Source of the DNA: a virus
Reading direction: 5' to 3' (one strand)
DNA: 64,000 bases
IMG/VR virus record: IMGVR_UViG_3300045988_131228
Coordinates: 109,272 to 173,271 of that record
Under the pieces are notes generated by a model. It saw nothing but the letters and a program-made list of their open reading frames with translations. It searched no databases and had not been told where the DNA came from. The translations under genes and the position numbers were made by a program. Shown here in pieces: positions 6,088-64,000 of the stretch. Each line of letters opens with the position of its first letter. The stretch's first letter is position 1.

Positions 6088-6314
6088 TTATTCTCCTTAT
6101 AATATGGACTTTTCTTTGCATATTCTTTCAGATACTTTAACATCTCTGATTCTTCTGGAAAGAATGGATTTCGTTTATGCTCAAGTGCAACATAATTTAG
6201 AAAGTTTATCATCAACTGACCAAATCGTAAGTCCGGATAACATTGCATCCATACTCTTTCTAACTCTTTAGTAAATTCTGGTATTCTATTCTTGTCTCTC
6301 ATTTTGACCTCCAT
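6084..6314 (-). CDS. hypothetical phage protein (72-76 aa)
   Basis: ORF track; a more likely start is ATG 6302, because GGAGG lies 5 nt upstream of it. Confidence 0.55.
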   Translation of the reverse strand: MEVKMRDKNRIPEFTKELERVWMQCYPDLRFGQLMINFLNYVALEHKRNPFFPEESEMLKYLKEYAKKSPYYKENK

Positions 6315-6326
6315 GAAACAGCTCTT

Positions 6327-6494
6327 TCATACATATATAAATTCTGCTAATGCATTATAATATCCAGCTAATACTCCTATCACCTGAATAGCTGTAATAA
6401 TGACTAATAGTGCAAAGAAATGTAATCTCTTTATATTGATTTTTAAGCAAAATACGCTCAATATCGCCCAACAAATAAGATTTATAACGTTCAA
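6327..6494 (-). CDS. possible small two-helix membrane protein (55 aa, TTG start)
   Basis: Own translation: NVINLICWAILSVFCLKINIKRLHFFALLVIITAIQVIGVLAGYYNALAEFIYV; no SD seen; an overlapping 51-codon ATG frame is the alternative. Confidence 0.3.
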   Translation of the reverse strand: MNVINLICWAILSVFCLKINIKRLHFFALLVIITAIQVIGVLAGYYNALAEFIYV

Positions 6495-6517
6495 AAATAG
6501 TTAAATTCATATTTTTC

Positions 6518-6820
6518 TTATTTAATATCTCCATTCATTTTTGCTTTAAATAACGCTTTTAAATAATCTTGTGGGTTGTCCTTTGCTGCTTGGAATCCTA
6601 CTTTTTGTCTTTTAATATCATCAAGTACGATTTTATATTTAGGACTATTACTTACTTCTTCTCTATATTTCTGCACTTCTTCACGGGTTACTATCTCTTT
6701 ATCAACTAAAATTCTCAATACAACTTGTACATCAATTGCTGTTTTAAGAATAGTTTCTTGTACTTGCAATTCGTGCAGAGCTTCTTCTGGTTTATAAAAC
6801 TTATCATTACTTACTGGCAT
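6518..6820 (-). CDS. hypothetical phage protein (100 aa)
   Basis: ORF track; fits the array; no domain recognised. Confidence 0.55.
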   Translation of the reverse strand: MPVSNDKFYKPEEALHELQVQETILKTAIDVQVVLRILVDKEIVTREEVQKYREEVSNSPKYKIVLDDIKRQKVGFQAAKDNPQDYLKALFKAKMNGDIK

Positions 6821-7425
6821 TTAATATCTTCCTTTCCAATAATTTCTGCTAATGTTCTCGGTGTATAATCCATGTAATTTATCATACAACCAACATTTTT
6901 AGCAATACATTTGATATTATGTTTCTCATTCAGCGATTCTATAAAGTCTTGAAAGATGGTTTCTTCATTTGAATTATGAACGTGACCATATAACTGAATG
7001 CTCCATACCTTATATTCTTCTCCATCTCTTCTATAATGATGTTGATGATTCCAGAAAGCTAATGGATAGTGTGAAAGAACTACATTATATTCTTTACCAT
7101 TGATATTATCTTTTACTTCCTTATAATCACAAACTTCTACAAATAGTTGCTTATATCTTTGGTCTTTCACTCTATCGTGATTGCCAACGATTAAATGTTT
7201 GTTACCTTTCAGTTTGCTTACAAATGAGATTACATCTTCATTCTCTTTCCACGCTAAATCACCAAGGATATAAACATGATCAGCATTAGTAATTACATTA
7301 TTCCAATTTGCTTTAATCGTTTTGTGCATTTCTTCAAGTGTTTTAAATGGTCTATTATCAAAATTAGAACCTTCATCTGTTACATTCTTATGGAATAAAT
7401 GCACATCTGAGATATAGTAATTCAT
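6811..7425 (-). CDS. calcineurin-like metallophosphoesterase
   Basis: Motifs DVH (ISDVHLFH), GD (ILGDLAW), GNHD (VGNHDR), GHVH. Confidence 0.8.
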   Translation of the reverse strand: MNYYISDVHLFHKNVTDEGSNFDNRPFKTLEEMHKTIKANWNNVITNADHVYILGDLAWKENEDVISFVSKLKGNKHLIVGNHDRVKDQRYKQLFVEVCDYKEVKDNINGKEYNVVLSHYPLAFWNHQHHYRRDGEEYKVWSIQLYGHVHNSNEETIFQDFIESLNEKHNIKCIAKNVGCMINYMDYTPRTLAEIIGKEDIKCQ

Positions 7426-7733
7426 TATTCATCATTCACTTTCTTAAATTTATAAATAGAATTTTCTGTTTCGACATTTATACAAGTAATTTCTCCATTC
7501 TTATCTTTAATATATTCAAAAGACTTTACAAAACTTGTTCTTAATACTAAGTATCTCATTGGTGTACCATCGGAATCTCTTACATATTTAATAATTAATG
7601 GAAAGCCAATTAAAATATCATTAATATCAAGGCTGATAATTCTTCCAATCCGCATAGGGTATCTATCGTCCTGCCTATCTAACCCTTTTAATGTTCCTTT
7701 ACTATGTTTGATGCTTGCAATTTTGTATAACAT
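7425..7733 (-). CDS. hypothetical phage protein (102 aa)
   Basis: ORF track; fits the array. Confidence 0.55.
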   Translation of the reverse strand: MLYKIASIKHSKGTLKGLDRQDDRYPMRIGRIISLDINDILIGFPLIIKYVRDSDGTPMRYLVLRTSFVKSFEYIKDKNGEITCINVETENSIYKFKKVNDE

Positions 7734-7735
7734 AT

Positions 7736-8125
7736 TTATTCTCCCATATCATGAAATTCTCTACCGTTAAGAATATTAATGAGTGCATTTTTATCTCTTT
7801 CTAATGCAAGTGAATATGAACACTTTGCAATAGAATCAGATTGAGATAATGGTTCTCTTTCTAATTCTTCATCAATTTTCTTATCAAGAAATTCTACAAA
7901 TCTCCACAAACGCTCTTCAATTGAAGAAACTAAGTTGCCATGAATGTCACCATTTGTATCAATCTGTACATCAGAAACACTCAGTTTATTAAAGTTAGTT
8001 ACTTCTTTCTTACTTAACCATTTAATCCATTTGTTGCATTTCTTACAATACAGTCCTGTCTGTGTGCCACTTTCTTTTGTGTAAAATTCTTCACAACCAC
8101 ATTTATTACATTTTTCTGGAATAAT
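7736..8125 (-). CDS. zinc-ribbon protein (129 aa) with apparent ATT start codon
   Basis: Own translation: (I)IPEKCNKCGCEEFYTKESGTQTGLYCKKCNKWIKWLSKKEV...REFHDMGE. The 130-codon frame opens after an in-frame TGA at 8134..8132. SD GAGGTG (8138..8133) lies 7 nt before ATT 8125..8123. There is no ATG/GTG until far downstream, and the first TTG is 57 codons from the end. Confidence 0.5.
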   Translation of the reverse strand: MIPEKCNKCGCEEFYTKESGTQTGLYCKKCNKWIKWLSKKEVTNFNKLSVSDVQIDTNGDIHGNLVSSIEERLWRFVEFLDKKIDEELEREPLSQSDSIAKCSYSLALERDKNALINILNGREFHDMGE

Positions 8126-8149
8126 AGTTGTTCACCTCTTTTCTTACAT

Positions 8150-8195
8150 ACTATATATAGTATTTATTTTAATTTAATACACTATATATAGTATT
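8150..8195. promoter_or_regulatory. two copies of ACTATATATAGTATT (palindromic core ACTATATATAGT), 31 bp apart
   Basis: Copies at 8150..8164 and 8181..8195, in the 98-bp gap upstream of the ATT-start gene. Confidence 0.6.
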
Positions 8196-8223
8196 GTTTC
8201 TGACATGAAATTCTGCTTTCATT

Positions 8224-8439
8224 TTATTTCCATATTCCTGATTTTAATTTTTCTTGCGCTTCATCTTTATCCAAAATATAGATATCTCTTTCACAAGCGT
8301 TACATACACCATAAACATCTTTTCCATCATATTCATAATGATAAACATTTGATCCACAACCACATGGATTCTTCTCATGTGGAACATAGTAACTATGAAT
8401 GGTTTTAGGTGCATCTTTATAATATTGTTTTGTTCTCAT
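8224..8439 (-). CDS. Cys-rich small protein (71 aa)
   Basis: ORF track; CGCGS..CNAC pattern. Confidence 0.55.
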   Translation of the reverse strand: MRTKQYYKDAPKTIHSYYVPHEKNPCGCGSNVYHYEYDGKDVYGVCNACERDIYILDKDEAQEKLKSGIWK

Positions 8440-9207: not shown

Positions 9208-12200
9208 CTAACAAATTTGGTATTCAGTAACCCACCATTCTTGTTCATCTATCTTTTGCCATTGTCCATCAATCTTTTTCTTTTTTGGTTCTTTATGTTG
9301 ATTTGTAACTTTTACAATATCTCCACGTTTAATAGGATTTTGTTTGAAAATTTTCTTACTAATTTTTACTGGAATTGTATTTCCATTGGCAAGAGCATAA
9401 AGTTTTACCTTTGGAGAATAATCAACATTTAAGTCTTCTACAAAGCAATAACCTGCATATTTTTTATCGACTATATCCATATAACCCAAAACTTCGTATC
9501 TTGATAATAACTTCTCTTTTAAAGAAACTTTTTCGTCAAAATTTCCAGCTAATTCATCTATAATAGCCTTTGAATCAATTCTCATAAAAGTCTTCACTGT
9601 TTCTGAACCACAATGCTTTCTAAGAACATCAAAATCAATTCCAAATTCAAACGCTTTATCTTTTTTAAATTGTGATAGATATTTCTTATTCTTATAAAAT
9701 TTCATGAAAACATCAAAATAGTTTAGAAGATATTTAATATCACCATAGTCTGAAAAATAATCAATATTAATAAGATCTTTTATTCTGCTATCGGCAATGC
9801 CATTTGTTTTAAGACATACAAATAAATCAGATAAGTTAGAATAACTGCCTTTACCTAGCTCATATAATGTATTTGCAATTGCTGTTGAGAAATTTTTAAT
9901 AGACGATAGAGATGGATTTATACATCCATTATTCTTATCAATGGAAAATTTTCGGTTATCTAATCCAAATTTATATGATCCAACTCGTATTTTTGCATAT
10001 TCAAACATTTCTTTTTTATATGCGGAAACTTTATCCTTATCACCTTTATCTGAATAATGTTGCATCATTACGGCATAAAATTCATATGGGTAATGAGCTT
10101 TACAATATGCTCCATATACAGAGTCGAAACCGTAGCTCAAAGCATGAGAGGCATTGAAAGAATATTTTGATGCGGCTTCTATGATCTCCCAAGTCTTTTC
10201 AAAACCATTTTCACTACCAACATTTTTAACCCATCCTTTAAGCAACTTAGCCTTTAATTCTGCTAATTCTTTTTCCTTAAATTTCTTTTTACTTATTTTC
10301 TTGATAATAGCATATGTCTCTGTTTGTTCAATTCCAAGCCATCCAAGATAAGTCATAATAGATTCCTGGTACATCATATAGTGAAAAGAATCTTTTAAAA
10401 GGTTATCTAGCTCTGTAACACCTGTTGTATATGGTAGTCTATTTAAAAAATTATTAAGCTGTGTTTTAAATCCTGGTCTTAAAGCAGCAACTAAAGATGT
10501 TAATTCCATCATATTTTGTGGTTTATATTTTTTGCAACATTGCACACCAAATGAAGATTCACACTGATTAATTCCAAGAGTATAACCACTAGAATATACG
10601 TCCCATGTTTTTTCATCGTCCTCTATAAGTTTTGTCATTTCTGGAACTGTAGGAGTTTTAATCCCAGCTTCTTTGAAAATATTATTGATTGTAAGCCAAA
10701 TATCTACTTTTAGTAAATCATTCTTAACAAACTTATAGTTTTCTGCAACCATTCCATCAATAACAGTGGTTATTACTTCTTTTTTTGTCGCTTCGGATTT
10801 ACACCTAATTAAACCCACTTCTCGCTTAATATCTCCATCATAAATCAAATAGCCACATGGGGCTTGAGATTTTGAATTGATAATTCCTCTATATTTTTTG
10901 CTTTCATCTATATAACTTTTATATTTTTTATCTACAAAGGTATACAAGTCAATAGAATCTTTCATATCATCTTCTGCATTCTTTAAAGCTTTTTCATATT
11001 CTTTAATCTGACTTGTAATTTCATTAGAAATTTCAAAATCTAATCCTTGAGATTTTGCATATAACTTGAATGCTGATGATACCTGTAACGGCTTATATGA
11101 TATCATTGGATATGCATGACCTTCACCCATTACCTTAATTTGTGCATCCGCAAAAATCTCAGGAGTACCTAAATTCAAGTCTAAATCCGGTAAACTTTTT
11201 GTTTTTAAAATTCTCGTTTTTGAAATAAATCTATCTGGATATAACTTTACAGGTGAAATAAATCTATCAATGTTACTGAAACCTAATAATGAATTAACAT
11301 AATAAGATACTCCACTTCCTCTTCCTGTTTTTGTAATTATTCCCCCATTCTCAACGCCAGTTTTAACAAGCTCATAATCTATGAGGAAATAATCAGCCAT
11401 TTTTGTATCAATAATTGCATTTAATTCATACTCAATTCCATCTTTATATTCTTTAAATCTCTCTGGTGATACAGTATTTTTAATTTCATTCCATTTTGAA
11501 TACACCAAATTATGTAATGTTGTATCTCTCCATTCTTGTGATTTATCTCCTACCCATTCACCATTAAAAAGATAATTTTTAGGAAGCTTTATGTTTTTAT
11601 TTAAAACAATATCGTCAAAATCTAAAAGAATATCTGTATTTTTAATACATTCATCAATTTGTTCATTGGTTAAAATACCTTGTTTTTTTAATCTTCTACG
11701 AGCTTCTTGCTCATCAGGATAATCCATATACCATCCTTGTTCATCTTCATCATATGCGATACCTCTTGCTTCTAAATAATTATCTCTTTCCTTATATTGA
11801 TCTGGATATATATAATGACTATCACAACCAAGGATTAATTTGATTCCAAATTCATCATGCAAATCAATTATTCTTTTATTTATTTTCTTTTGAATATCAG
11901 TATTATGATACTGAATCTCCAAAAAGAAATTATCTTTAAAATGTCTATATAATTTTTCTGTAATCTCATCAATATCGTTGTAAGCCCAATATTTCAAACA
12001 AGCAGTTGTTACCATGATATTTTCAGGTTTTACATTTAATAAAAGATTGATGTCAATTCTTGGTTGTCCATAAAACCCATCTATACTTGCAACAGAAAGA
12101 ATTTCATTAATATCTCTACGTCCCTCTTCATTTTTAGCTAATAAAATTATATGGCAATTAGTTCTGTCTTTGACAAATTCATTCGGAATTTCTTTGCCTG

Positions 12201-17604: not shown

Positions 17605-17633
17605 ATTTTATATTCTCCGATGAAATTTGGATT

Positions 17634-17945
17634 TTAATTTTCTTCCTGTCTACCTGACCAATCACATTGAGTACATAACTCATCAAGTTCATTCATATGT
17701 TTTTCAAGATATTCCATAATATCTTTAACAATATTAATGTCGCAAATACCAATTACTCCCTTTTGCTTTTCATTATCAATATATATTCCGTCTGAACAAT
17801 CATATTTTATTGGAATATCAAAGACCTCATCAAAGCTTCCTTCACTAAGCGATACTGTAATTCCATTTGGTTCAACTACAACTTTAAAATTATGTGATTT
17901 GTCATATTTCATAATTTTAACAATGTCTTCTACTACATTAATCAT
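17634..17945 (-). CDS. hypothetical acidic protein (103 aa)
   Basis: ORF track. Confidence 0.55.
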   Translation of the reverse strand: MINVVEDIVKIMKYDKSHNFKVVVEPNGITVSLSEGSFDEVFDIPIKYDCSDGIYIDNEKQKGVIGICDINIVKDIMEYLEKHMNELDELCTQCDWSGRQEEN

Positions 17946-18313: not shown

Positions 18314-18350
18314 TTTCTCACATCCTATCTATCTGAAACGAAAGTTTTAT

Positions 18351-24767: not shown

Positions 24768-24803
24768 ATATTATGGCTTTTCTCCTTTCATGAAATGAAA
24801 ATT

Positions 24804-25136
24804 TCAGACTAATTTACGTTCTCTTAATTCTGTCCATTTCTTAAAATCATCAATTGTAAATTCTTCTGACTTAATATCATCACGTAATAATACAGTATAA
24901 TGAGGTACATCTTCGTTTAAATTCTGGTCAAGGAAGTCATTAATCACAGCAAATGAATTATAAATGCCTAATTTATATGCTTTCTTCTCAGATTCAGTCA
25001 TACCAGTACAAACATTTACCTCTGTATCTCCTAATACTTTCTTATATGTATTAATACTTTCTACTATCATCATGACTTCATTTTCTTTTGTATTTGTCCT
25101 ATTCGATTTCATGTAATGTATCCTCCAACTTCTCAA
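24804..25136 (-). CDS. hypothetical protein; probable start ATG 25112
   Basis: ORF track; GGAGG 9 nt before the internal ATG. Confidence 0.5.
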   Translation of the reverse strand: MRSWRIHYMKSNRTNTKENEVMMIVESINTYKKVLGDTEVNVCTGMTESEKKAYKLGIYNSFAVINDFLDQNLNEDVPHYTVLLRDDIKSEEFTIDDFKKWTELRERKLV

Positions 25137-26100: not shown

Positions 26101-26198
26101 TCATTTATCACCTCATATGTGTCTTTTAAGGCATATTTTGGTCAAAAATACACCTCAAAAGACGTAATTTTTATGATGAAAGGGAACTTTCATCTGAT

Positions 26199-27378: not shown

Positions 27379-27516
27379 TGTTATCCCTTTCTTTCTCCTT
27401 CATCTGTTTGCAAAATTCTCTATATCTTCTTGTATATTCATAAGATTCTCCAAATATATTATTCACACCTTGAAAAAATAATTTCATCTTTAATTTTTGC
27501 CTATTTTCATGCCATT

Positions 27517-28324: not shown

Positions 28325-28539
28325 ATTTGTCCCTAAAGTGCCGCGCAGCTTACCTCATGAGACTATGTTTTCCTTTCTTCTATCAATTGTTTCTTTCATG
28401 TGATATATTAAATCACTAATATTTATGCGGTTTCAGCGTCCCAAAACCACATGATATTATGTATTCTAGTTATGTTATCTCTTTCAGAAGTCAGTAAAAT
28501 CAAGGATTTTCAAAACTACGATGAAAGAAATATTTTATG

Positions 28540-31335: not shown

Positions 31336-31368
31336 CTATTTACTCCATGAAATCGAGATTTTATCGGA

Positions 31369-32430: not shown

Positions 32431-32459
32431 ATCCTCTCTGAAACGTTTGTTTCATGTAT

Positions 32460-33520: not shown

Positions 33521-34105
33521 TTACATATTATCTAAAGCTTCAACAAATTCGCTACCACAATCACAAAATGTATAAATCATAGATTTCATAAGTCCCCAAG
33601 ACATTCCTGAGTGACCTTGATTCTTCATTACTTCAATACCTGCGACAATAGAATTATCCTTAACAGTTTTAATAATATCTAAACATTGACCTAACTCCAT
33701 TCCTTCGTACAGATCACCTAATCTAATAGGTACGCATCTATCCCATTCGTCCCATTTGTCTTGTGATAAAACTTTATGTCCTTCTTTAATCCAATATTTT
33801 GTTAGTTCTGGAATTTTCTTTTTATGTTCTTCTTCTCTTCTGATTAAATCTTGTCTCATTTTTTCTTGTTCATCTTTAAATTCTTTAAATGTTTTACCAA
33901 TACATTCAACATACGCTTCATCTACTGTCATATCAGATGTTAATTTGTGACCATTAAATTCTCCAAAATATTTTTTACCAGTAGATTCTGCCTTACTATG
34001 CAGTAATTTAACTGAATCTTTAATGGATAATCCACAATCAAAGTCAATTTTAATATAATCCATATATTCATTCCTCTCTTTCCACAGATGAAAGTTTACT
34101 TTCAT
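33521..34105 (-). CDS. hypothetical protein; probable start ATG 34063
   Basis: ORF track; SD GAGAGGA precedes the internal ATG (MDYIKIDF..). Confidence 0.55.
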   Translation of the reverse strand: MKVNFHLWKERNEYMDYIKIDFDCGLSIKDSVKLLHSKAESTGKKYFGEFNGHKLTSDMTVDEAYVECIGKTFKEFKDEQEKMRQDLIRREEEHKKKIPELTKYWIKEGHKVLSQDKWDEWDRCVPIRLGDLYEGMELGQCLDIIKTVKDNSIVAGIEVMKNQGHSGMSWGLMKSMIYTFCDCGSEFVEALDNM

Positions 34106-35601: not shown

Positions 35602-35628
35602 CCTTTCTTCACAAATGAAAGACGCATT

Positions 35629-35811
35629 TTATCCACGAAATATACCTATTCCATCGACACATTTACTACAATGATTGTTTGTACATGGTCTTAATCCTGC
35701 TTGATACAATAAACATTCGGAACATGCAGAAGGTACAAAGCCAATTCTTTCAGCTTTTGATCTCACTTCTTTCATTGTATTTCTATTTCTTGCCTTGACT
35801 GTTTCACTCAT
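35629..35811 (-). CDS. Cys-rich 60-aa peptide directly downstream of the radical SAM gene
   Basis: ORF track; basic N-terminal half, then ..SACSECLLYQAGLRPCTNNHCSKCVDG.. (5 Cys). Confidence 0.5.
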   Translation of the reverse strand: MSETVKARNRNTMKEVRSKAERIGFVPSACSECLLYQAGLRPCTNNHCSKCVDGIGIFRG

Positions 35812-37323: not shown

Positions 37324-37359
37324 CTCTCATTTTTTGTCCTTGAAACTGCCGTTTTAACT

Positions 37360-40138: not shown

Positions 40139-40182
40139 AAATTATTCCTCCTTTGAAACTCGTGTTTCATCTAATACCTCTA

Positions 40183-41708: not shown

Positions 41709-41738
41709 ATCACCTTCTAAAATGAAATAAATTTTTCA

Positions 41739-43072: not shown

Positions 43073-43116
43073 TGAGAATCACCACCTTTGATACAATGAA
43101 AGATTTCTTTCAACTG

Positions 43117-43551
43117 TTAATTATCGCAAATTATGTATCTATATCCCATATTCTTACTACATAATTCAATCATATACGAATCTAAAGTATCAAATTTTAT
43201 CAAACATCTTGTTCTATCATCAAAAAAGAATTTTTCTCCAAATGTATCAAGTCCAGAACTTTCGTTAATTATTTTAATAAAATCAGATATCTCGTATATA
43301 CAAACATTAAATCCAACAACACTAGCAATTTCTTCCTCTGATAGAAGATCTTCGTTTTTTACACAATCCAAATATTCGTCTACTTCTCTACAAAAATTTT
43401 TATATAACGATTTAATATCTTTCCCACTATATATACAATTTTCAGGAACTTTTTCAATATATCCCATTAATCTATTTGTTCTTGTTTCTAATTCAATAGT
43501 TCCTGTTAAACCTTTATATGATTTTAATTTTCCTAAAAATACTGTTTTCAT
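43117..43551 (-). CDS. hypothetical phage protein (144 aa)
   Basis: ORF track. Confidence 0.55.
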   Translation of the reverse strand: MKTVFLGKLKSYKGLTGTIELETRTNRLMGYIEKVPENCIYSGKDIKSLYKNFCREVDEYLDCVKNEDLLSEEEIASVVGFNVCIYEISDFIKIINESSGLDTFGEKFFFDDRTRCLIKFDTLDSYMIELCSKNMGYRYIICDN

Positions 43552-43565
43552 GAAATCAACCTTTC

Positions 43566-43742
43566 ATCTCATCAGATCCCCTACTTACACTCCAAAATTG
43601 TAAGAAATTATATTGAAAACATTCAGCAGAAAAGTCTGAATAACTCTGCAACTTATCTGGTTTGGCTTGCGCCTTGTAGCAATGACTACGTTTAGGGCAG
43701 TCACTACTACAGCACATTGTAATATCAGGCATTTTTATTACT
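43566..43742 (-). CDS. Cys-rich small protein (58 aa)
   Basis: Own translation: MPDITMCCSSDCPKRSHCYKAQAKPDKLQSYSDFSAECFQYNFLQFWSVSRGSDEMKG. Confidence 0.45.
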
Positions 43743-44840: not shown

Positions 44841-45025
44841 TCATGAATGTCCGATTTATGCAGCATTACAAAGTTTATAGAAAGGAATTTAGGTAACTCC
44901 TAGGATAAAGTAGTTGTACAACTCCCTATAAAATAAGGGAATTTGAGTCATTTAGTTGAAAATAATATTTCTTTGTTCTTGGAAATAATTTGGGTGATCA
45001 CCCATAGAAATTTACTCGATATGTA

Positions 45026-45926: not shown

Positions 45927-45957
45927 ATTTTCTCCTTTGAAATGCCAATTTCTTCTG

Positions 45958-47715: not shown

Positions 47716-47752
47716 TTTATCGCACCTCCTGAAAGCAATATTTCATATGTCG

Positions 47753-48540: not shown

Positions 48541-48758
48541 AATAATTCATACCATACAATAGGTGCAAAAAAGCATTTTAAAAGCGAAATTGCTAATAAT
48601 TTGACCGAAAATGCCCCTGCTGCAATGGAAAATAATAGATGAAAGACGGGTTTCATGAACAAAAATCCCCATGAAATTATCACGTTTGCTACCATCCCAC
48701 CCAGAAAAACAATCCAACCTAACTTCCTACGAAATTTATGTATCTTTTCTTTATTCAT
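48498..48758 (-). CDS. membrane protein (86 aa)
   Basis: ORF track; 2-3 hydrophobic helices. Confidence 0.55.
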   Translation of the reverse strand: MNKEKIHKFRRKLGWIVFLGGMVANVIISWGFLFMKPVFHLLFSIAAGAFSVKLLAISLLKCFFAPIVWYELLWMIEVITGYLGDY

Positions 48759-51156: not shown

Positions 51157-51535
51157 AATATAATTATGAATATAATCTAATTTATAAAATTCATTTTCAA
51201 ATTCCTTACTTATTGTATCTCACTTCTTTTCTTTGAAACTCAAGTTTTAATAAAACAAGTCTTTCATCTACGTTTTTAAATTTATCACACTGACTCTCTT
51301 TCATTTCTTCTCCATGAAAACCCAATTGTAAATAACATTTATTAAGTATATTGCAGGTATCATAATCAACATAATATTATAAATCAATTCTATCATTCTT
51401 AATTACTCCTAAAACTCACATTTTATCTATGTTTTTGATATATTTTTAAAACTTTCAAATTTCATATGACAATACGTTTCAAGTTTTGTAGCTATGTCAA
51501 ATTAAATAGTTATCGTGTATATTACATAGCTTTTA

Positions 51536-51575: not shown

Positions 51576-51610
51576 TACATTTCTGCAATGACGTGAATGA
51601 AACCACGCTT

Positions 51611-51802
51611 TTATCCTGTCTCCTCAAATATATTTCCAATCTGGTGACCAATCATCTTTCTATCCTTTATCTTCTTACATTTCGTGCATCGACATTTACC
51701 AATCACAACTTCTAACCCACTATAATTATACTTTAAATGTCGTGGCTTTTCGATTAATACCCAGTTATGATTACACATTAGTTGATCCATCCTTACTATC
51801 AT
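51611..51802 (-). CDS. zinc-ribbon small protein (63 aa)
   Basis: CNHNW..CRCTKC. Confidence 0.5.
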   Translation of the reverse strand: MIVRMDQLMCNHNWVLIEKPRHLKYNYSGLEVVIGKCRCTKCKKIKDRKMIGHQIGNIFEETG

Positions 51803-52373: not shown

Positions 52374-52820
52374 TTAATCTACTTTCTCTTTAAAATTGAT
52401 AAATCCTTCTTCTGCACAAATTCCGTCATGTGCTTTCCAATAGTAATCTTCATAGAATTTACATCTATTAAAATTACAATGTTCACATTTATGACACGAC
52501 CTCAATTGTAGCCCCTGTGTTTCGTTTATATGTGATAATGCAATATCTTTAAATCGTGTAACTGATTCTGTTGCCGTTTCCAATAACGCATCGGAATACA
52601 TTTTTGTTATTTTCTTCTCTATTTTCTCAAATGCACTATTGATTGTTTCGGTATAATCTTCTGGATAAAACAGATAATAGTCATATGCACGTAAATCTGA
52701 TGCTATTCTGTCCACAATCAAATCTCCAATACGTTTCTTAATATCTTCAACATTATTTTCTCCAAGAAGATAATCGAGTTCTGATAAGTTTTTCTTTACT
52801 TCATTTACTGTATCTTTCAT
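52374..52820 (-). CDS. helical protein with C-terminal Cys cluster (148 aa)
   Basis: CHKCEHCNFNRC..C. Confidence 0.5.
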   Translation of the reverse strand: MKDTVNEVKKNLSELDYLLGENNVEDIKKRIGDLIVDRIASDLRAYDYYLFYPEDYTETINSAFEKIEKKITKMYSDALLETATESVTRFKDIALSHINETQGLQLRSCHKCEHCNFNRCKFYEDYYWKAHDGICAEEGFINFKEKVD

Positions 52821-55090
52821 TATGCAACTGCTCCTTTATTAAAAGTAATCAAATCGTTTCTCATATTGAGATAGTTCTTTTTTTGATCAATATCATATGT
52901 ATCAACTCTTTTAAAATAATTCTCAAACCATTCTTCGTAATTTTCATCCTGCATATACGCATATGCGATAACTGCAATTAAAGATTTTCTGTTTACATCA
53001 TCAAGTAACTTAGACTGTACATCTTTTGTAATGGTATTTAAGTCGTCTTCATAATAAGAAACATCAATGTCTGTTACGTTCTTATCAACACATTCTTTCA
53101 CAAAATCTAATGTATCGTTATCTACTACTTCTCCTTCAACGTGTTCAATTTCTACATTTCCAATTGCTGAATACTCTGTTACTTCTGCAATAATTGGTTT
53201 CTCAGGTGATTCTTCAACTACTTCTGTGTCAAATAAATCATTTTCAACTGTTTCTGGTTCTGATTCTTCTGTGATTTCCTCAACAGAATCTTCGATATGT
53301 AAGTATTCTTTCATCAGAGTAAGCAAATGATTGAATCTTTTTGTTACGGAAGAACGATCCTTTGTTCCTTTCTGCCCATTTAAACAATCGTATGTAATGC
53401 CATCAATTTCTTTATTATGTAATGTCTCTTTAAATTCCTGAATAAATCCATTAAATTTATCATCTTCAATGTCATATTCTAAAAATTTATCAAATAAAGC
53501 AAACCATAAAAATGAATTTTTATTATTAAAAATATCTGATGTATCACCTCTTAACACATTAAATAACTTCTCCAATGTCAAATAAAAATCAATAAATACT
53601 GATTCATTTGCATTTTCAGTTAAGTAAGCACACATTTTACCAAAATCTTTATCAAAATGGCTAAGATATTTAGATGTCATTATTGCTTCAATAATAATTC
53701 TTCTAAGTGATCCATTCTTAATATTCGTATTTGAATAACTTGACTTATCACAATCAACTTTAAAGAAGTCCATCTTTAAAATCTTATCTACATATTCAGC
53801 ATAGGATTCTTCTAATCCTAGCCATCCTGACTGAGAAACGTTCATTGGTCTACATCTGTTGAATCGTGCAATATCATAAGCAATATCTTTCTTTGTACAA
53901 TTCAAATTGAGCATTACAGGAACTTGATAATCTCTAAATTTGTCTTGTAATTCTTCTGGCAACTGAGAAAATTTCTTTCCACGAATATCAAACGTTTTAC
54001 TTTCAGGTATTGGAAATCCATCTTCATTCAAAATCACATTTCCATCTTCATCTGTTTTGTCGCTCTGATATTCAATCATATATCTCTGTACATTTTTGGA
54101 AATTGCAAATCCATCTTCCAGATAATCTTTTAAATTTGTAGAACGCTGTTTTCCATCAATTAACCAATGCATTATAATTCCAGCTTTAATTTCTTCTGAA
54201 ATTACAATCTGTAAAAGTGAATTACCTTGTAAAATATCAGAAATTAATTCACTTTTTGTAAGTAAACTCCATTGTCCAGAAGTTCTTTGCAACGGATGGT
54301 TGTCTCTTAATCTGTGCTGCCTTAACTGTTTACTAAGAGATTCTATTGAATAACTGGTAGACTTCGTTCTTTCTGATGTTGTTGTTTTTGTTTCCATTGG
54401 TAATTCCTCCTCAATATTTGCATTCTCACATTCTTCCGTTTTTAGAAGTTGTCTTTTTTCATACTCTTTCATATCAGAAAGATATGTATTATATTCTTTG
54501 TCCGAAAGCTTTAATATGCTTTTGATCTCCGTAGAATTACATCCTTGCATTATTAAATCTGCAATTTTGCGCTCTATACACCCAAGAGAAGCAATATATT
54601 TGACTACATTTTCTCCAAGATTTAATAGTTCTCCTGCATCAATACTGCTTTCTATATCAAAATCAGAAGGAATTATATCAATCACCTTTGTTTTTCCATC
54701 GTCAGACATGAGATTATCTAATGATGTTGGATAAATATATTCCTTAATTTCCTTTCCATCTTCTATCTTTGTTACGATTTTACAACGCTTTTGTCTGTTT
54801 TTTCTTGTAATATGCATCTTAACTTTTCTGGAAATTGCAAAATATATAAATCCATTGAATTTATCTTTATCAAAATCTTCAATTCCTTTATCTAATTGAC
54901 TTTTGATATATTTTGTAATCTCTAAATTTGCTATAGAATAACATTCATCCCTGTCAATATCGGTGATACCACCAAACTGTTTTAGAATTTTATCTACAAC
55001 ATTATGTAATTTCTTTGCTGATTCTTCTGGTTTATCCTCATTTACTTTATAATAAGATTCCAGAATGTCTTTGTAGTGCATTCGTATCAC
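52820..55090 (-). CDS. fusion protein: sigma-70-like N-terminal region + DUF262 (ParB-fold, GmrSD N-domain type) + acidic/helical C-terminal region
   Basis: Residues ~50-100 resemble sigma region 2 (FNGFIYFAISRKVKMHITRKNRQKR). ~165-215 resemble a region-4 HTH (IERKIADLIMQGCNSTEIKSILKLSDKEY). DUF262 signatures: HPLQR..W, ISDILQG, LIDGKQRST. No HNH/DUF1524 motif seen. Confidence 0.55.
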   Translation of the reverse strand: MIRMHYKDILESYYKVNEDKPEESAKKLHNVVDKILKQFGGITDIDRDECYSIANLEITKYIKSQLDKGIEDFDKDKFNGFIYFAISRKVKMHITRKNRQKRCKIVTKIEDGKEIKEYIYPTSLDNLMSDDGKTKVIDIIPSDFDIESSIDAGELLNLGENVVKYIASLGCIERKIADLIMQGCNSTEIKSILKLSDKEYNTYLSDMKEYEKRQLLKTEECENANIEEELPMETKTTTSERTKSTSYSIESLSKQLRQHRLRDNHPLQRTSGQWSLLTKSELISDILQGNSLLQIVISEEIKAGIIMHWLIDGKQRSTNLKDYLEDGFAISKNVQRYMIEYQSDKTDEDGNVILNEDGFPIPESKTFDIRGKKFSQLPEELQDKFRDYQVPVMLNLNCTKKDIAYDIARFNRCRPMNVSQSGWLGLEESYAEYVDKILKMDFFKVDCDKSSYSNTNIKNGSLRRIIIEAIMTSKYLSHFDKDFGKMCAYLTENANESVFIDFYLTLEKLFNVLRGDTSDIFNNKNSFLWFALFDKFLEYDIEDDKFNGFIQEFKETLHNKEIDGITYDCLNGQKGTKDRSSVTKRFNHLLTLMKEYLHIEDSVEEITEESEPETVENDLFDTEVVEESPEKPIIAEVTEYSAIGNVEIEHVEGEVVDNDTLDFVKECVDKNVTDIDVSYYEDDLNTITKDVQSKLLDDVNRKSLIAVIAYAYMQDENYEEWFENYFKRVDTYDIDQKKNYLNMRNDLITFNKGAVA

Positions 55091-55981: not shown

Positions 55982-56107
55982 ATAAAATACTTAAAAATGA
56001 GTACAAAAACTACGATGAAAGCCGACTTTCATTTGTAATATTTCTCTATATTTAGTTGTTTAAAATTGGAATAATCGCAGAATCGCTATGATTAATAAAG
56101 ATTTTGC

Positions 56108-57414: not shown

Positions 57415-57421
57415 TCATCGC
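57401..57421. terminator. hairpin GCGATGAC-AAATA-GTCATCGC between convergent genes
   Basis: 8-bp GC-rich stem; T-rich tract follows on the minus strand (TTTCTTT), weaker on plus. Confidence 0.5.
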
Positions 57422-57450
57422 CTACATAGTTATTATTTAAAAGCAACCTT

Positions 57451-57657
57451 TCATCTTTCGATTATGGTATGTTTTCCTTTATGTTCACAATCATTCTGAT
57501 CACATATCAAACATCTTTCTTCATATGGGTTCATTCTGGCATAATTACAATACATAGTAATATTCTCAGATTCGTTTATTCCTGGAACTAAAAATATTTT
57601 ACTCATAATCTTGTAATCCTTTCTTTGAAAGTTGGATTTCAGCATTGTATTATTCAA
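57451..57657 (-). CDS. Cys-rich small protein (68 aa or shorter)
   Basis: ORF track. Confidence 0.45.
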   Translation of the reverse strand: MNNTMLKSNFQRKDYKIMSKIFLVPGINESENITMYCNYARMNPYEERCLICDQNDCEHKGKHTIIER

Positions 57658-58042: not shown

Positions 58043-58068
58043 TTTTATACCTTCATGAAAGTCGAATT

Positions 58069-58224
58069 TTATTGTTCTCCAATAATAATTGGTCTATAAA
58101 TAACATCTACATTCTTTAAAAGTTCCAATGCTTCATCACACGCTTTCCAAGCATCACTTAATTTTTTATATCGTCCTAAATAAATACTGCCTTTAGGAGC
58201 ATAATTAATGTAACTCGTATACAT
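58069..58224 (-). CDS. hypothetical small protein (51 aa)
   Basis: Own translation: MYTSYINYAPKGSIYLGRYKKLSDAWKACDEALELLKNVDVIYRPIIIGEQ; SD GGAG. Confidence 0.45.
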   Translation of the reverse strand: MYTSYINYAPKGSIYLGRYKKLSDAWKACDEALELLKNVDVIYRPIIIGEQ

Positions 58225-58248
58225 ATATTCTCCATTATTTAATATATT

Positions 58249-58485
58249 TTATTTATTCTCTTTATACCATAAATCAGCAATTGCATGAGTTAATTCAATT
58301 TGTAACATCCATGTTGTATTTGATCCAAAATCTTCATTATAAGCCTTTCTAATCTTGTCTAAATCTGTATCTGAATCAAAGAATCCCATTTCCTCTACTT
58401 TAAGAAATTCTCCATACAATTTTACCAGTTCTTCTTTTGATTTAGTTTCAAAAATATTAACATGTCCCATATGTAATACCTCCAT
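58249..58485 (-). CDS. hypothetical protein; probable start ATG 58470; intact paralogue of pseudogene 62867..63064
   Basis: ORF track; GGAGG 8 nt before the internal ATG (MGHVNIFE..). Confidence 0.55.
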   Translation of the reverse strand: MEVLHMGHVNIFETKSKEELVKLYGEFLKVEEMGFFDSDTDLDKIRKAYNEDFGSNTTWMLQIELTHAIADLWYKENK

Positions 58486-58509
58486 AAAATCAGTCTTTCA
58501 TCTGCATTA

Positions 58510-58962: not shown

Positions 58963-58971
58963 AATATACCT

Positions 58972-59124: not shown

Positions 59125-59185
59125 AATCTATATACCTCCAAAATCTTTCTATAATACACTTCTCTGTTGTTTTCATTAATTACTC

Positions 59186-60016
59186 CTATTCTATCATATC
59201 TGAATCATCTTGTGGACATAAATAATCTTCCGGTGTTTCTTCTTCATTCGAGAAAATACACATTCTTTCCTGGTTTTTAAATATTTCTTCATCTGTGATG
59301 CAAATATATCTTAAAGTAATACGCATATCAGCATGTCCAAAAATAGTCATAAGCTGTATAAGAGCCTGTTGTTTGTCTGGTGCAGCTAAATAATAACTAT
59401 GTCCAAAAGTCTTACGAAGTCCATGAGTACCAATAGACTGTTTAATACCTGCTTTTATTCTATTCCTCTCAACAGTTCTATACCATGTCATTTCTCCAAT
59501 ATGTTCACCTTTATTAGAAGAAAAAATATAATCAGTTAACTCAGGAGTTTCATTATGATCTTCTAACCACTTATGCCAATTCTGAATAGCCATTTTAAAA
59601 TCACTGTCATATCTTAATTTGACATATTTTCTTTTAATTACATTTCCACATCTATCTCTACGCTCTGTTTTTTCTGGAACAAACTTCTGTGACTTTTTAA
59701 TTCTCCATCCATCTTCATATACATCTTTCCATGTGAGTTTGCAAAAATCCCCACCACGTAATCCAATATTGATCGCACATATGAACATTGTAAGATTTCG
59801 CATAGCGTTCTTTTCTTTATTAACAGTAGTCGCATTATCAACATCTGTTTTAAACACATTGTATACAGATAAAATTTCATCCTTAGTATACAAACATTCC
59901 ATCTCTGTTGACTTCCCACGCCGTAATGTTTTCTGTTTTGGAAAATTGTATATCGTTGCTTTCTGTTTTTGATTGATATAACACGGCTGTTGGATTGCTA
60001 AAGCTGGCATAACCAC
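59186..60016 (-). CDS. int: tyrosine recombinase / integrase; probable start ATG 60010
   Basis: Catalytic pattern GLRGGD.., HGLRKTF, GHADMRITLRY; AGGAGG before ATG 60010. Confidence 0.9.
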   Translation of the reverse strand: MVMPALAIQQPCYINQKQKATIYNFPKQKTLRRGKSTEMECLYTKDEILSVYNVFKTDVDNATTVNKEKNAMRNLTMFICAINIGLRGGDFCKLTWKDVYEDGWRIKKSQKFVPEKTERRDRCGNVIKRKYVKLRYDSDFKMAIQNWHKWLEDHNETPELTDYIFSSNKGEHIGEMTWYRTVERNRIKAGIKQSIGTHGLRKTFGHSYYLAAPDKQQALIQLMTIFGHADMRITLRYICITDEEIFKNQERMCIFSNEEETPEDYLCPQDDSDMIE

Positions 60017-60030
60017 ACCTCCTAACTATT

Positions 60031-61219: not shown

Positions 61220-61431
61220 CTTTCATAAAAACTACATGGTATCTTGCATTTTCCTGTCGATGATGCACCTTTACCACATAGTCCATCCTTCATGTATTTA
61301 CAAGCGTCTTTTATAGCACCAATATTTCGCGATCCACAATTATTACAATGATACGATTTCTCTTTTTCATCATATCGAATATCTCTGTTTCCACAATCTA
61401 AACAAATCATAATTCTCTCCCATGAAAACAA
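61216..61431 (-). CDS. zinc-ribbon protein; probable start at ATG (MICLDCGN..)
   Basis: CLDCG..CNNCG; GGGAGAG before the internal ATG. Confidence 0.55.
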   Translation of the reverse strand: MFSWERIMICLDCGNRDIRYDEKEKSYHCNNCGSRNIGAIKDACKYMKDGLCGKGASSTGKCKIPCSFYER

Positions 61432-61443
61432 TCTTTCAATTAT

Positions 61444-61722: not shown

Positions 61723-61754
61723 ATTCTAACCTCCCATAAAAGCAATTTTTCAAC

Positions 61755-62341: not shown

Positions 62342-62698
62342 TTATTCATTTTCTAACTCCTGCAGCTTTTTCGTTGCTTCTGCTCTTGTTAAAAATACTG
62401 TTTCTCCAAAAGATTCTTTGTAAAATATGATGCTAGATGTTGAAAATTCAATTGTTGTGCTTAAAATTTTTATTGATTTTATTTTTCTCCCGCAAATATT
62501 TTCTCCGCTGATGATAAAAACTGAATCTCCGACTTTACACGGTAGTTTTAATAATAATCCCTGTTCTTCTAAATCTTCATATTCAGCAAGCTTAGTAAGA
62601 ATTTTGTCTGCAAACGATTTTAATAATCCATCTGTGATTTCTTCCTTTGCAATGCCCGTACCATCAATATTTCTTTCTCTTTCTGTTAATCTTTCCAT
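62342..62698 (-). CDS. hypothetical protein (118 aa), paralogue of 37616..38014
   Basis: ORF track; SD GAGAGGTGG. Confidence 0.55.
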   Translation of the reverse strand: MERLTERERNIDGTGIAKEEITDGLLKSFADKILTKLAEYEDLEEQGLLLKLPCKVGDSVFIISGENICGRKIKSIKILSTTIEFSTSSIIFYKESFGETVFLTRAEATKKLQELENE

Positions 62699-62866
62699 TA
62701 TTCCACCTCTCTTACTTCCTGATATATAATTTCCATATCGAAATTACTTTCAACATCTGCGTTCGTCTTCATTACGTTTACTGATAAATTCATCAAAACT
62801 CAATATTTCTGACATGTTTATCTTCCTTTTGTTTGAAAGTTAAATTTCAAACTACTTAATACTATT

Positions 62867-63064
62867 TTAACATTCTTCATACCACATATCACAAATTGCA
62901 CGAGTTAATTCAATCTGCATCATCCATGCTGCATTACATCCAAATCGTTATTCATATAATTCTTTTATTTTACCGATCCAAACATTCCAGTTTCTTCAAC
63001 TTTTAAAAATTCAGAATACAGTTTATGTAATTCTTCTTTAGTTTTAGTTTAAAAATATTTTCAT
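62867..63064 (-). pseudogene. decayed paralogue of 58249..58485 (premature stops and at least two frameshifts)
   Basis: Three-frame reading gives MKIFLN*, TKTKEELHKLYSEFLKVEETGMFGSVK*, and WMMQIELTRAICDMWYEEC*. Intact paralogue: NIFETKSKEELVKLYGEFLKVEEMGFFDS..TWMLQIELTHAIADLWYKENK. Confidence 0.7.
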
Positions 63065-63102
63065 TATTCGTAGTAAATATACCTCTATCATTTTATTTTT
63101 CT

Positions 63103-63405
63103 TTATTTAATGTTTTCAATTTCTTCCATTTTTTCTAAAAATAATTTCATTTCATTGACGGTAAGTCCAACAACAATATTTCTATCAGAAACCGTCTGAT
63201 AAGAATATAAAACATATTCATTAGAGATTAATTTCTTTGCAATATCAACTTTATGAATATATTTAGATTCTTCATTTTCTCTAACATATTCATATAAATT
63301 TTCGTTTTTTATTTTCTTTTTAAAACCGATTTCTAATAACTTTTCATCTATATTTTTACTCAAATATTCCTTCTCCAAATATTTCTTCTGGTTCTCGTTC
63401 TTCAA
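63103..63405 (-). CDS. hypothetical protein, paralogue of 46159..46458; probable start TTG 63363
   Basis: ORF track; the listed start overlaps the upstream gene by 50 nt. Confidence 0.5.
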   Translation of the reverse strand: MKNENQKKYLEKEYLSKNIDEKLLEIGFKKKIKNENLYEYVRENEESKYIHKVDIAKKLISNEYVLYSYQTVSDRNIVVGLTVNEMKLFLEKMEEIENIK

Positions 63406-63649
63406 ATTCAGACCATCTTATTTCTTCTGTATTAAAATCACTTTCTGTACATTTATCATCATCAAACAAAGAGATTTCACCATTACTATATAAATTCCAT
63501 ACTGCTTTTGAAATATTCTCTTTGGGATCATCAAATGACGGTAAATTATCCTTGTGTTCTTCAAGCCATTGTTTTACTTTCTCTACATCTTTGTCTGAAA
63601 GATGTACTGTGTACCATGTCATTCCAATAACTTCTATGTCCATTCCCAT
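63356..63649 (-). CDS. acidic hypothetical protein (97 aa)
   Basis: ORF track. Confidence 0.55.
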   Translation of the reverse strand: MGMDIEVIGMTWYTVHLSDKDVEKVKQWLEEHKDNLPSFDDPKENISKAVWNLYSNGEISLFDDDKCTESDFNTEEIRWSEFEEREPEEIFGEGIFE

Positions 63650-63679
63650 ATGATTTACCTGCTTAATTATTTATCAATA

Positions 63680-63886
63680 TTAATACCAACCATGATTATT
63701 AAATTCCCCATTTTTATAACCTTCAATATATTTATTTAATTGTTCTTTTGACATATCTCTTATAAAATTAACAGATCTTAAAAATTGTGAAAAATTCATC
63801 TTATTTTCTTTTAAAAAATCATGTAAAGGTTTCATTTCTTCCTCATGTTTATCAAATACAACTGCCATTTTATATCGTCCTTTCAT
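63680..63886 (-). CDS. hypothetical small protein; probable start ATG 63868
   Basis: ORF track; SD AAAGGA before the internal ATG (MAVVFDK..). Confidence 0.5.
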   Translation of the reverse strand: MKGRYKMAVVFDKHEEEMKPLHDFLKENKMNFSQFLRSVNFIRDMSKEQLNKYIEGYKNGEFNNHGWY

Positions 63887-63901
63887 ATTTTATTTATGAA
63901 A

Positions 63902-64000
63902 CTATTCTTTCATCTGCTTTTTATTTCTATATGATTCCATATACCATTCCAAAAAGTCACCATATAGATGTTTTTCCGCTTCTTTTCTGGCACTTGCAGC
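63902..64000 (-). CDS. 3' end of a gene that starts beyond the window end
   Basis: Own translation: ..AASARKEAEKHLYGDFLEWYMESYRNKKQMKE stop (TAG 63904..63902). Confidence 0.4.
   Translation of the reverse strand, partial: AASARKEAEKHLYGDFLEWYMESYRNKKQMKE

Follow-up and report, generated by a model that had tools for sequence, protein, structure and literature searches.

A recurrent palindrome at gene ends in the early arm of an SPbeta-like phage is a candidate dispersed operator

What does a short palindrome do when it recurs at gene junction after gene junction of a phage genome? The question is raised by a 64,000-nucleotide stretch of viral DNA (IMG/VR record IMGVR_UViG_3300045988_131228, positions 109,272 to 173,271), which we call the window and in which nearly all genes lie on the minus strand. 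An initial annotation, made from the sequence alone, had noticed at the junctions between these genes a 16-bp element in which two 5-bp half-sites enclose a free 6-bp centre, TGAAA-N6-TTTYA. We refer to this element as the dyad, and we asked whether it is real, where it lies, how it varies, which phages carry it and what it might do.

Searching both strands of the window for TGAAANNNNNNTTTYA (TGAAA-N6-TTTYA) gave 51 strand matches, in which perfect palindromes are counted on both strands, and these correspond to 33 distinct loci. Dinucleotide shuffles of the window gave 3.04 ± 2.10 strand matches with a maximum of 10, and the enrichment over shuffled controls, one of the checks proposed at the outset, was thereby confirmed. 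In minus-strand gene orientation, the perfect palindrome was observed 18 times against 0.58 expected from a second-order Markov model, the G2->A variant 11 times against 0.53, and the C15->T variant 4 times against 1.0; no other single substitution was enriched. In a de novo scan of 5-mer dyads with spacings of 0 to 12, TGAAA-N6-TTTCA ranked first in the window and in many of the contigs found through the recombinase described below. Enrichment in the window was confined to the N6 spacing, and all 33 spacers differ from one another. The consensus is a-G-A-TGAAA-b-N4-v-TTTCA-T, with the core R-AAA-N6-TTT-Y. With these results, we conclude that the junction palindrome in the window is genuine, strongly non-random and conserved.

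The initial list of copies needs some correction. It gave 27 exact copies, 26 of them at the right coordinates and one, "43561", a slip for 43551, and it missed those at 10382, 48640, 51251, 51598, 57438 and 57626. Seven further copies had been described as carrying one mismatch; all exist as degenerate copies with an intact TTTCA half, but four need two changes, and only 39521, 44957 and 45938 fall within one mismatch of the strict palindrome. Two remarks on distribution were right: the dyad is nearly absent from the replication operon at 8.6-17.6 kb, and one copy precedes a tRNA-Met gene (55907-55982).

We determined the placement of the dyads with a simple automatic gene model of 139 minus-strand genes. 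Thirty of the 33 sites are non-coding, compared with 13.3% of the window (binomial P ~2e-23), in agreement with the expected preference for intergenic over coding sequence. The sites are held close to the end of the upstream gene: 20 of 29 begin 0-12 nt past the first base of its stop codon, and the T[GA]A of the dyad is itself that stop codon in seven sites by the automatic gene calls or nine by a stop-codon table. On the other side, 19 of 30 finish 11-28 nt ahead of the next start codon, the Shine-Dalgarno (SD) sequence often starts 0-3 nt past the dyad, and about half of the copies abut it. In long intergenic regions the dyad adjoins the upstream stop and not the downstream gene (for example at 8206, 26177, 28522 and 43097), and it stays beside that stop even where the next gene is 77-440 nt distant.

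To extend these observations, we assembled 142 non-redundant sites from the window, its 176-kb relative MT835469 and 27 related early regions. In this set, the information content per position between -45 and +45 disclosed no element conserved at a fixed distance on either side of the dyad, and the flanks outside -3 to +17 carried no information in either the 33 or the 142 sites. Promoters of the sigma-A type were not in excess at dyad junctions relative to other junctions (mean best score 8.3 vs 8.2, p = 0.23). The polarity of the dyad is weak: 52% of sites have G at -2, but only 4-18% have the matching C at +18, while A at -1 and T at +17 mirror each other. A tendency for the TTTCA half to face the downstream gene, reported in the initial annotation, holds within the window but fades in the 142 sites, where G2->A occurs 32 times and C15->T 30 times.

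This symmetric degeneracy bears on whether the dyad is read as DNA or as RNA. Position 6 avoids A and position 11 avoids T, again a mirror preference. Four matches in the window carry both A at 2 and T at 15, two of them at gene junctions, and by arithmetic on the window counts such double variants are about as numerous as independent half-sites predict. The outermost spacer bases had been said to form compensated pairs, a claim that did not survive: pair 6/11 is Watson-Crick in 13 of the 33 window sites against 10.0 by permutation (p = 0.16) and complementary in 37 of the 142 against 39.2. Pairs 6/11, 8/9, -1/17, -2/18 and -3/19 showed no covariation, which leaves five of six candidate pairs at chance, and with the exception of pair 7/10, considered below, the permutation tests on both sets rejected an extended stem or covariation. 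With a stem, G-U should be commoner than A-C, which is not the case, and an RNA hairpin is not supported. Half-sites that are symmetric and vary independently instead argue for duplex DNA read by two identical subunits. Taken together, the pattern of variation points to a double-stranded DNA site read by a symmetric dimeric protein, whose binding we infer. Among the roles first suggested, an operator for a dimeric regulator is best favoured by the symmetric, independent half-sites and the strict N6.

The gut phage to which the window belongs is, judging by its genes, SPbeta-like and temperate or plasmid-type, an identity that had been overlooked together with the precedents discussed below. 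The window runs collinearly with positions 22-87 kb of MT835469.1, a 176-kb phage genome from human faeces that carries no annotation. Roughly half of the window aligns to that genome at ~91% identity, and the remainder has been replaced gene by gene. The exact starting point of many such replacements is the SD/ATG or the stop of one small gene, whether or not a dyad is present (for example 23581-24178, 33099-33465, 43865-44905 and 50319-50323). The window encodes an NAD ligase, a PolIII-alpha-type DNA polymerase, an exonuclease, a primase-helicase, two methyltransferases and a radical-SAM protein. The closest cultured relatives of this polymerase, which is YorL-type, are in Clostridium botulinum phage c-st (41%) and C. 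difficile phage phiCD211 (38%); c-st, the nearest cultured relative, is a plasmid prophage with genes annotated as homologues of SPbeta YorL, YorI, YorJ, YopQ and YopR. In MT835469.1, minus-strand genes encode a YonO-like single-chain RNA polymerase (164851-167721; 21% identity to SPbeta YonO, E = 6e-7), which falls in a PHROG of unknown function, and, in the late arm, a YomM-like integrase (155455-156495). A host search of genome contigs returned only distant relatives, in Blautia, Acutalibacteraceae and Peptostreptococcus bins.

Conservation in related phages, another check proposed at the outset, was found across the group and in SPbeta itself. In MT835469, 37 of 43 sites lie in the early arm at 10-90 kb, and the late, opposite-strand arm has few matches, mostly degenerate and intragenic. 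In each of the 27 related early regions there are 2-7 sites per 10 kb, and TGAAA-N6-TTTCA ranks first among de novo dyads in many contigs with as little as 40-66% identity in the recombinase-like protein. Some related contigs have no dyad, and others have a variant at junctions of the same type. TAAAA-N6-TTTTA occurs in contigs L103 and L142, in SPbeta and in c-st. AGAAA-N6-TTTCT, with the outer T/A flipped on both sides, occurs in L156 (4402, 8563, 20249), L146 and L162; the outermost positions thus vary while RAAA-N6-TTTY stays fixed, and in this variant the first three bases are not a stop codon. SPbeta (NC_001884) has 36 TAAAA-N6-TTTTA sites, 29 of them in the 65-134 kb early arm; the Markov expectation is ~1 per 50 kb. 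Spacing in this arm is as strict as in the window (27 copies at N6, 0-2 at every other spacing from N3 to N10). The SPbeta copies (for example 86074, between yoqC and yoqD, 86886, 87599, 95129, 113664 and 115044) are not annotated in the record and are followed by a conserved N3-A-R-A, with A-R-A at +20 to +22. They too lie at gene ends, and the TAA is the stop codon in nine, after mtbP, yorT, yorZ, yosC, yosF, yosR, yoqG, yoqS and yoqY. In c-st we counted 19 sites against 4.3 expected.

We tentatively favour, at somewhat less than an even chance, the explanation that the dyad is a dispersed operator at gene ends, which would silence or insulate the early arm in a manner comparable to the stoperators of mycobacteriophages. 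A symmetric, dimeric, sequence-specific protein would bind the dyad as duplex DNA; some 30 such sites occupy the few non-coding bases directly past stop codons along the same-strand early arm, where host-type promoters are few, and once bound would serve as dispersed operators or roadblocks against transcription reading through from upstream. These roadblocks would add to the control exerted at the few real promoters, a part played by stoperators in L5 and Bxb1 and by dispersed SPBRE sites for MrpR/SroF in SPbeta. At operon starts in SPbeta and c-st the dyad lies upstream of the SPBRE-type box and the promoter, and in the window it lies beside the upstream stop even ahead of a distant gene; both arrangements fit a block to incoming transcription and not a 5' leader. 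In SPbeta this order (dyad, SPBRE, promoter) is found at aimR and yorE. In c-st, a strand-specific repeat, ATTAAATTAAA (29 copies on the gene strand vs 2 on the other), often lies 10-20 nt upstream of TTGAC-type -35-like boxes (for example at 3508, 20309, 29664, 30772 and 41273). A dyad precedes this repeat by 7-12 nt in six cases (11 nt in four), and in four of the six a TTGAC-type -35-like sequence follows. The c-st repeat may be for CST030, an MrpR_N_CB protein, what SPBRE is for MrpR.

The comparison with stoperators holds for number and placement. In L5 and Bxb1 the repressors, gp71 and gp69, reportedly stop transcription through prophage genes from many intergenic sites; these stoperators are said to be 13-bp, asymmetric, in one orientation and of the same sequence as the operator of the early lytic promoter. 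In both systems tens of short sites lie in short intergenic gaps and often touch stop or start codons, here as 33 loci of which 30 are non-coding and 20 of 29 begin within 12 nt of a stop. The dyads differ in being limited to one arm. By this analogy, we propose that a bound protein would block elongating RNA polymerase in the way of a stoperator repressor.

Several observations weigh against this explanation. Stoperators are asymmetric and strictly oriented, whereas the dyad is symmetric with a weak polarity (the G at -2). Nor does the dyad share its sequence with a lytic-promoter operator: the strong divergent promoter beside the helix-turn-helix (HTH) gene of the window, a perfect TTGACA-17-TATAAT (57110-57138), carries a different repeat, two direct copies of ACTATATAT that flank its -35 box. 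ACTATATAT(AGT) has 8 matches in the window against 2.1 expected, with sites at 8150-8192, 57124-57148, 43426 and 58514, and two full palindromes, TACTATATATAGT, at 8150-8192 lie within the gap 7909-8224. This repeat is probably the operator of the Cro/CI-type HTH protein, and since it and not the dyad sits at the divergent promoter, the dyad probably is not. We also profiled 140 window proteins against 33 contigs with or without dyads; up to 10 kb on either side of the recombinase-like gene, no encoded protein correlates with the presence or absence of the dyad. An alignment of five HTH sequences was too divergent to be read for covariation with dyad type. ChAP-seq of MrpR in SPbeta gave 10 peaks, at SPBRE only (PMC10516654), so MrpR does not bind the SPbeta dyads. 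The abutment of about half of the copies on the SD would be explained equally by a role in translation at the RNA level. Apart from these observations, complementarity of pair 7/10 is in excess in the 142 sites (52 vs 34.9, p = 0.0006), an isolated signal that may come from related copies surviving de-duplication. For the favoured explanation, we infer the repressive or blocking effect of binding, and any protein named as its agent is a candidate.

Within the lineage itself the nearest precedent is SPBRE, which lies at ~10 promoter regions bound by the master repressor MrpR/YopR/SroF; this protein has the fold of a tyrosine recombinase but not its activity (PMC10516654). SroF reads an asymmetric box of 24-26 bp as a monomer, and the phi3T box is 26 bp (bioRxiv 10.1101/2025.11.27.690993). 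From the SPbeta ChAP-seq peak regions we derived the consensus cAAATACAAAwAATATGTATA. Like the dyad, SPBRE is a repeated intergenic element of the early arm in which several copies abut the SD (yopM, yopV, yonX), copies of the dyad are likewise dispersed over the early arm of an SPbeta-like phage, and the window encodes a protein of the same fold as MrpR. The two differ in that SPBRE is asymmetric, A/T-rich, longer and located at promoters; the window dyad does not have its sequence and, by the promoter scores given above, does not share its preference for promoter regions. SPbeta has both SPBRE and 29 dyads, at separate positions. Differing in sequence and position, the dyad is thus an additional element of the lineage. 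A homologue of MrpR was not found in the window: the integrase-type protein hits PF00589 only and not the MrpR-family profiles PF22822/PF22823, tblastn with YopR found nothing in the window or MT835469, hhalign gave a probability of 0.1, and MrpR/SroF was absent among the top 50 Foldseek matches of the window recombinase. By Pfam, tblastn, hhalign and AlphaFold with Foldseek, this protein has an ordinary Xer-like catalytic domain, and we rejected it as an MrpR homologue.

Among sites known from elsewhere, the CcpA cre site TGWAANCGNTNWCA has the same pentamer half-sites, TGAAA and TTTCA, but is 14 bp long with a 4-bp centre in which CG is essential, whereas the dyad has an unconserved 6-bp centre. 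The initial comparison with cre therefore comes down to resemblance, only N6 being enriched. A literature search for the dyad sequence itself gave no hit, and the SPbeta papers examined, among which Lazarevic et al. 1999 and Brady et al. 2023 were not included, do not describe it. The early statement that no described element matches is thus true of the sequence; for function, SPBRE/MrpR and the L5/Bxb1 stoperators are close precedents. Other identities were also set aside: a restriction or methylation target would not be intergenic-only, an extracytoplasmic function (ECF) sigma -35 box (TGAAAC) lacks a -10 partner and position 6 is not C-biased, and a MazF cleavage site gives no reason for dyad symmetry.

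The arms and centre of the dyad also recall the core sites of tyrosine recombinases. We consider it unlikely that the dyads are such sites for the phage's own, catalytically intact recombinase, with inverted arms around a 6-bp centre and unique spacers. Each would then exchange with the matching site of a co-infecting relative, and occasionally the arms of different sites would recombine, driving the gene-by-gene mosaicism of the early arm by an integron- or PeSL-like cassette exchange. The strict N6 and arms of 5-7 bp flanking a non-conserved 6-bp centre, as in dif and lox, are consistent with this, and the window encodes a PF00589 protein (59186-60016). In a 39-sequence alignment R87, K116, R201 and Y237 are invariant and H198 and H228 nearly so, residues that we take to be catalytic. 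An AlphaFold model (pLDDT 83) has a catalytic domain and a disordered N-terminus, and its best structural matches by Foldseek are the S. aureus integrase (3nkh), XerA, XerH-difH, Tn1549 Int and IntI4. XerH is among the best matches by sequence as well, and difH of Helicobacter and Campylobacter, TGAAAA-N6-TTTTCA (PMC2731167), resembles the dyad in its inverted arms, 6-bp centre and inner arms TGAAAA/TTTTCA. dif differs, however, in having one site per chromosome, 11-bp arms and a GA-to-TC distance that is off by 2 bp, compared with more than 30 sites of differing centres here. Homology to MT835469 appeared to favour recombination. Of 66 block ends, 13 are no more than 10 nt from a dyad, where random positions would give 1.2; an arm edge is often the exact point of the break, and six dyads persist with their spacer as islands of 19-46 nt whose flanks are different in the relative. 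Against a gene-junction null the excess was no longer significant. In informative comparisons across 60 related loci, dyad junctions break in 63% of cases; other junctions do so in 48% (p = 0.09), and those whose spacer is 15 nt or longer in 58% (p = 0.39). The dyads are on this ground not demonstrable recombination hot spots, and the cassette boundary first suggested is not supported: many block ends lie at the motif edge, but breaks are not significantly commoner there than at other spacer junctions. Many cassette boundaries lie at an SD/ATG without a dyad, the arms are conserved over 6-7 bp only, which is short for a recombinase arm, several recombinase-bearing contigs (L146-L155) have no dyads, and in SPbeta, where dyads occur, this recombinase has no close homologue. 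PeSL elements of T4-type phages are alike in being recurrent short elements bordering small, variable early genes at which homology often breaks, but they combine an early promoter with a stem-loop, whereas the dyad has no promoter excess, no supported stem and no significant enrichment of breaks over other junctions. Differing spacers normally block exchange by tyrosine recombinases (Cre/lox, Xer/dif), and within the window partner centres are not identical; identity is found only between orthologous sites of different genomes. A version in which the spacers act as barcodes for a recombinase poor in core-binding (CB) domain, each site recombining only with its counterpart in a co-infecting relative, seems to us very unlikely.

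Proteins of the ParB clan offer another binder, and it is quite unlikely, in our judgement, that the dyads are loading or centromere-like sites from which such a protein (DUF262/GmrSD_N here, the DndB-like YopQ/SroE in SPbeta) organises, partitions or spreads over the early arm from dispersed 16-bp palindromes. Known parallels are KorB (plasmid RK2), Noc and, in phage N15, the dispersed sopC sites. The 16-bp length and the tens of copies in one chromosome domain fit, as does the plasmid state of c-st. Homologues of the 756-aa protein with the DGKQR motif are marked GmrSD_N, several paralogues lie in the same module, YopQ matches DndB, and contig L104 has the order GmrSD_N, integrase-type, divergent HTH of yopQ-yopR-yopS. 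We know of no ParB-family site with a free 6-bp centre, those sites being contiguous palindromes, and they are not usually limited to intergenic spacers. The 756-aa protein occurs in contigs with and without dyads (18/18 vs 13/15) and in the window has no Pfam match at E <= 0.01, nor a Pfam or PHROG match at the thresholds used. ParB-clan proteins are attractive as binders, SroE being a second repressor in SPbeta, and nothing here ties them to the dyad. It is improbable, in our view, that SroE/YopQ, the second repressor of the SPbeta family, with its ParB/DndB fold, has the dyads as its DNA target; the authors who described this repressor call its mechanism unknown (bioRxiv 10.1101/2025.11.27.690993). 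A role in the early polycistronic mRNA, as an intercistronic stem-loop by the SD, with or without a bound protein, that controls processing, stability or translation, is decidedly unlikely. The distances to the start codon and SD suit it, where the arms of perfect copies are extended, folding energies reach -5 to -14 kcal/mol and z-scores go as low as -6, pair 7/10 shows its excess, and the module encodes a PemK/MazF-type endoribonuclease. Yet the other pairs do not covary, G2->A (an A-C mismatch) is as common as or commoner than C15->U (a G-U wobble), the loop is not conserved, and an Rfam search of the window matched only the tRNA. One third of copies, and in SPbeta every copy, are of the TAAAA type, which does not fold stably (0 to -1 kcal/mol); where operons meet, the dyad precedes the next promoter and so is not part of the downstream mRNA. 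The stem-loop and hairpin-promoter readings of the initial annotation are disfavoured by the same lack of covariation and of folding. A phage-specific promoter or middle-promoter activator box firing at each junction we regard as highly improbable. Many copies stand at gene starts of one temporal class, the A-R-A at +20 to +22 in SPbeta could mark a start site, and relatives encode a YonO-type RNA polymerase; but nothing is conserved at a fixed distance, sigma-A-type promoters are not in excess, transcripts starting 5-25 nt downstream would lose an SD that lies 0-3 nt past the dyad, and a perfect palindrome is odd as a promoter. A YonO promoter was rejected because YonO uses a single late promoter in SPbeta (PMC5467207) and the late arm has no dyads.

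The sites and the two candidate binding proteins are listed in the table. The latter belong to a lysogeny-type module at 56413-60423 and its neighbourhood. Beside the recombinase gene and the perfect promoter, the module holds the divergent Cro/CI-type HTH gene (57148-57414, 88 aa), which is the only clear plus-strand gene of the window, and a PemK/MazF toxin gene (56685-57074) with a downstream gene of ~100 aa; then comes the gene for the large DUF262/GmrSD_N-type protein of 756 aa. By eye, this protein has a sigma-region-4-like N-terminus in addition to its DGKQR motif. Gene order is kept in contigs L103-L105, where the recombinase is only 37-45% identical; the divergent gene is of the HTH_26 family, and in relatives a Bro/ANT antirepressor is part of the module. 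In L104 the GmrSD_N gene stands directly before the recombinase gene and the divergent HTH gene, the same order as SPbeta yopQ (DndB-like; YopQ matches DndB at E = 7e-16), yopR (MrpR) and divergent yopS (HTH_26). Two inverted repeats were seen by eye directly after dyads: a long one at approximately 26085-26130, after the dyad at 26177, and one with a T-rich tail, GGCGATGAC..GTCATCGC..TTTCTTT, at approximately 57395-57425, after the dyad at 57438. The latter is terminator-like and separates the recombinase operon from the 3' end of the HTH gene.

Table. Dyad sites in the window and candidate binding proteins. Relative: MT835469.
Position	Strand	Feature	Remarks
6314..6329		perfect dyad	gene orientation TGAAAGAGCTGTTTCA; TGA = upstream stop; SD 1 nt later
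8206..8221		perfect dyad	4 nt past upstream stop; heads ~300-nt intergenic region (7909-8224) also holding two ACTATATATAGT palindromes
10382..10397	-	TAAAA..TTTCA	inside DNA polymerase open reading frame (ORF); probably chance; kept in relatives as coding sequence
17621..17636	-	dyad TAAAATCCAAATTTCA	TAA = upstream stop
18334..18349	-	TAAAA..TTTCA	orthologous site in relative is TGAAA
23059..23074	-	dyad	TAA = stop; in relative only dyad and few flanking bases match, downstream flank differs, upstream gene matches ~200 nt away
24791..24806		perfect dyad	TGA = stop; homology to relative starts at upstream edge
26177..26192		perfect dyad	8-bp arms; long hairpin follows
27471..27486		perfect dyad	in stretch marked coding by crude gene calls (uncertain)
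28522..28537	-	TAAAA..TTTCA	4 nt past stop; relative has TTTTA
31348..31363	-	dyad	SD 1 nt later
32439..32454		perfect dyad	
34089..34104		perfect dyad	11-bp arms, this copy only; TGA = stop
35616..35631	-	dyad	TAA = stop
37341..37356	-	dyad	
40154..40169		perfect dyad	SD 2 nt later; homology to relative starts at upstream edge
41723..41738		perfect dyad	
43097..43112		perfect dyad	19-nt island including spacer identical in relative, both flanks different
43551..43566		perfect dyad	homology to relative stops after first arm
44957..44972	-	degenerate copy	gene orientation AGAAA..TTTCA; variant dominant in some relatives
45938..45953	-	degenerate copy AGAAATTGGCATTTCA	SD 2 nt later
47730..47745		perfect dyad	abuts GGAGG
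48640..48655		perfect match	within predicted ORF; status uncertain
51234..51266	-	two adjacent copies	51251-51266, then 51234-49, 1 nt between; relative has only the first; second heads gene cassette absent from relative
51598..51613	-	dyad	TAA = stop; homology to relative stops at downstream edge
52820..55090	-	candidate binder (putative)	756-aa protein with DGKQR motif; homologues marked GmrSD_N/DUF262
56016..56031		perfect dyad	34 nt upstream of tRNA-Met; downstream of perfect sigma-A-type promoter and terminator-like hairpin
57438..57453	-	TGAAA..TTTTA	TGA = stop; terminator-like GGCGATGAC..GTCATCGC repeat starts 15 nt downstream
57626..57641		perfect dyad	in relative only dyad and 12 downstream bases (28 nt) match
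58056..58071	-	dyad	TAA = stop
58485..58500	-	TGAAA..TTTTA	SD 1 nt later
59186..60016	-	candidate binder (putative)	tyrosine recombinase-family protein, 276 aa; catalytic residues conserved
61423..61438		perfect dyad	in relative only dyad and few flanking bases (23 nt) match
61737..61752	-	TGAAA..TTTTA	
62834..62849		perfect dyad	homology to relative stops at downstream edge
63897..63912		perfect dyad	

As judged from comparative sequence evidence, the dyad is a putative dispersed operator, a kind of element known from temperate phages, with a sequence, symmetry and placement that are new. With 29 copies in the early arm of SPbeta itself, the question is directly testable in Bacillus subtilis 168, and the dyad may explain what the second repressor, SroE/YopQ, does. 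If the barcoded recombination reading were true instead, the sites would allow site-specific swapping of early cassettes without deletion of the phage's own genes, a phage analogue of the integron. In gut phage contigs that lack annotation, the dyad is also a simple marker for the boundaries of early-arm genes. Should the dyads be operators, they would form a second genome-wide layer of control beside SPBRE/MrpR in SPbeta-like phages, a group of large phages, temperate or plasmid-type, that is found in Bacillus, Clostridium and Clostridia of the human gut and includes toxin carriers such as c-st.

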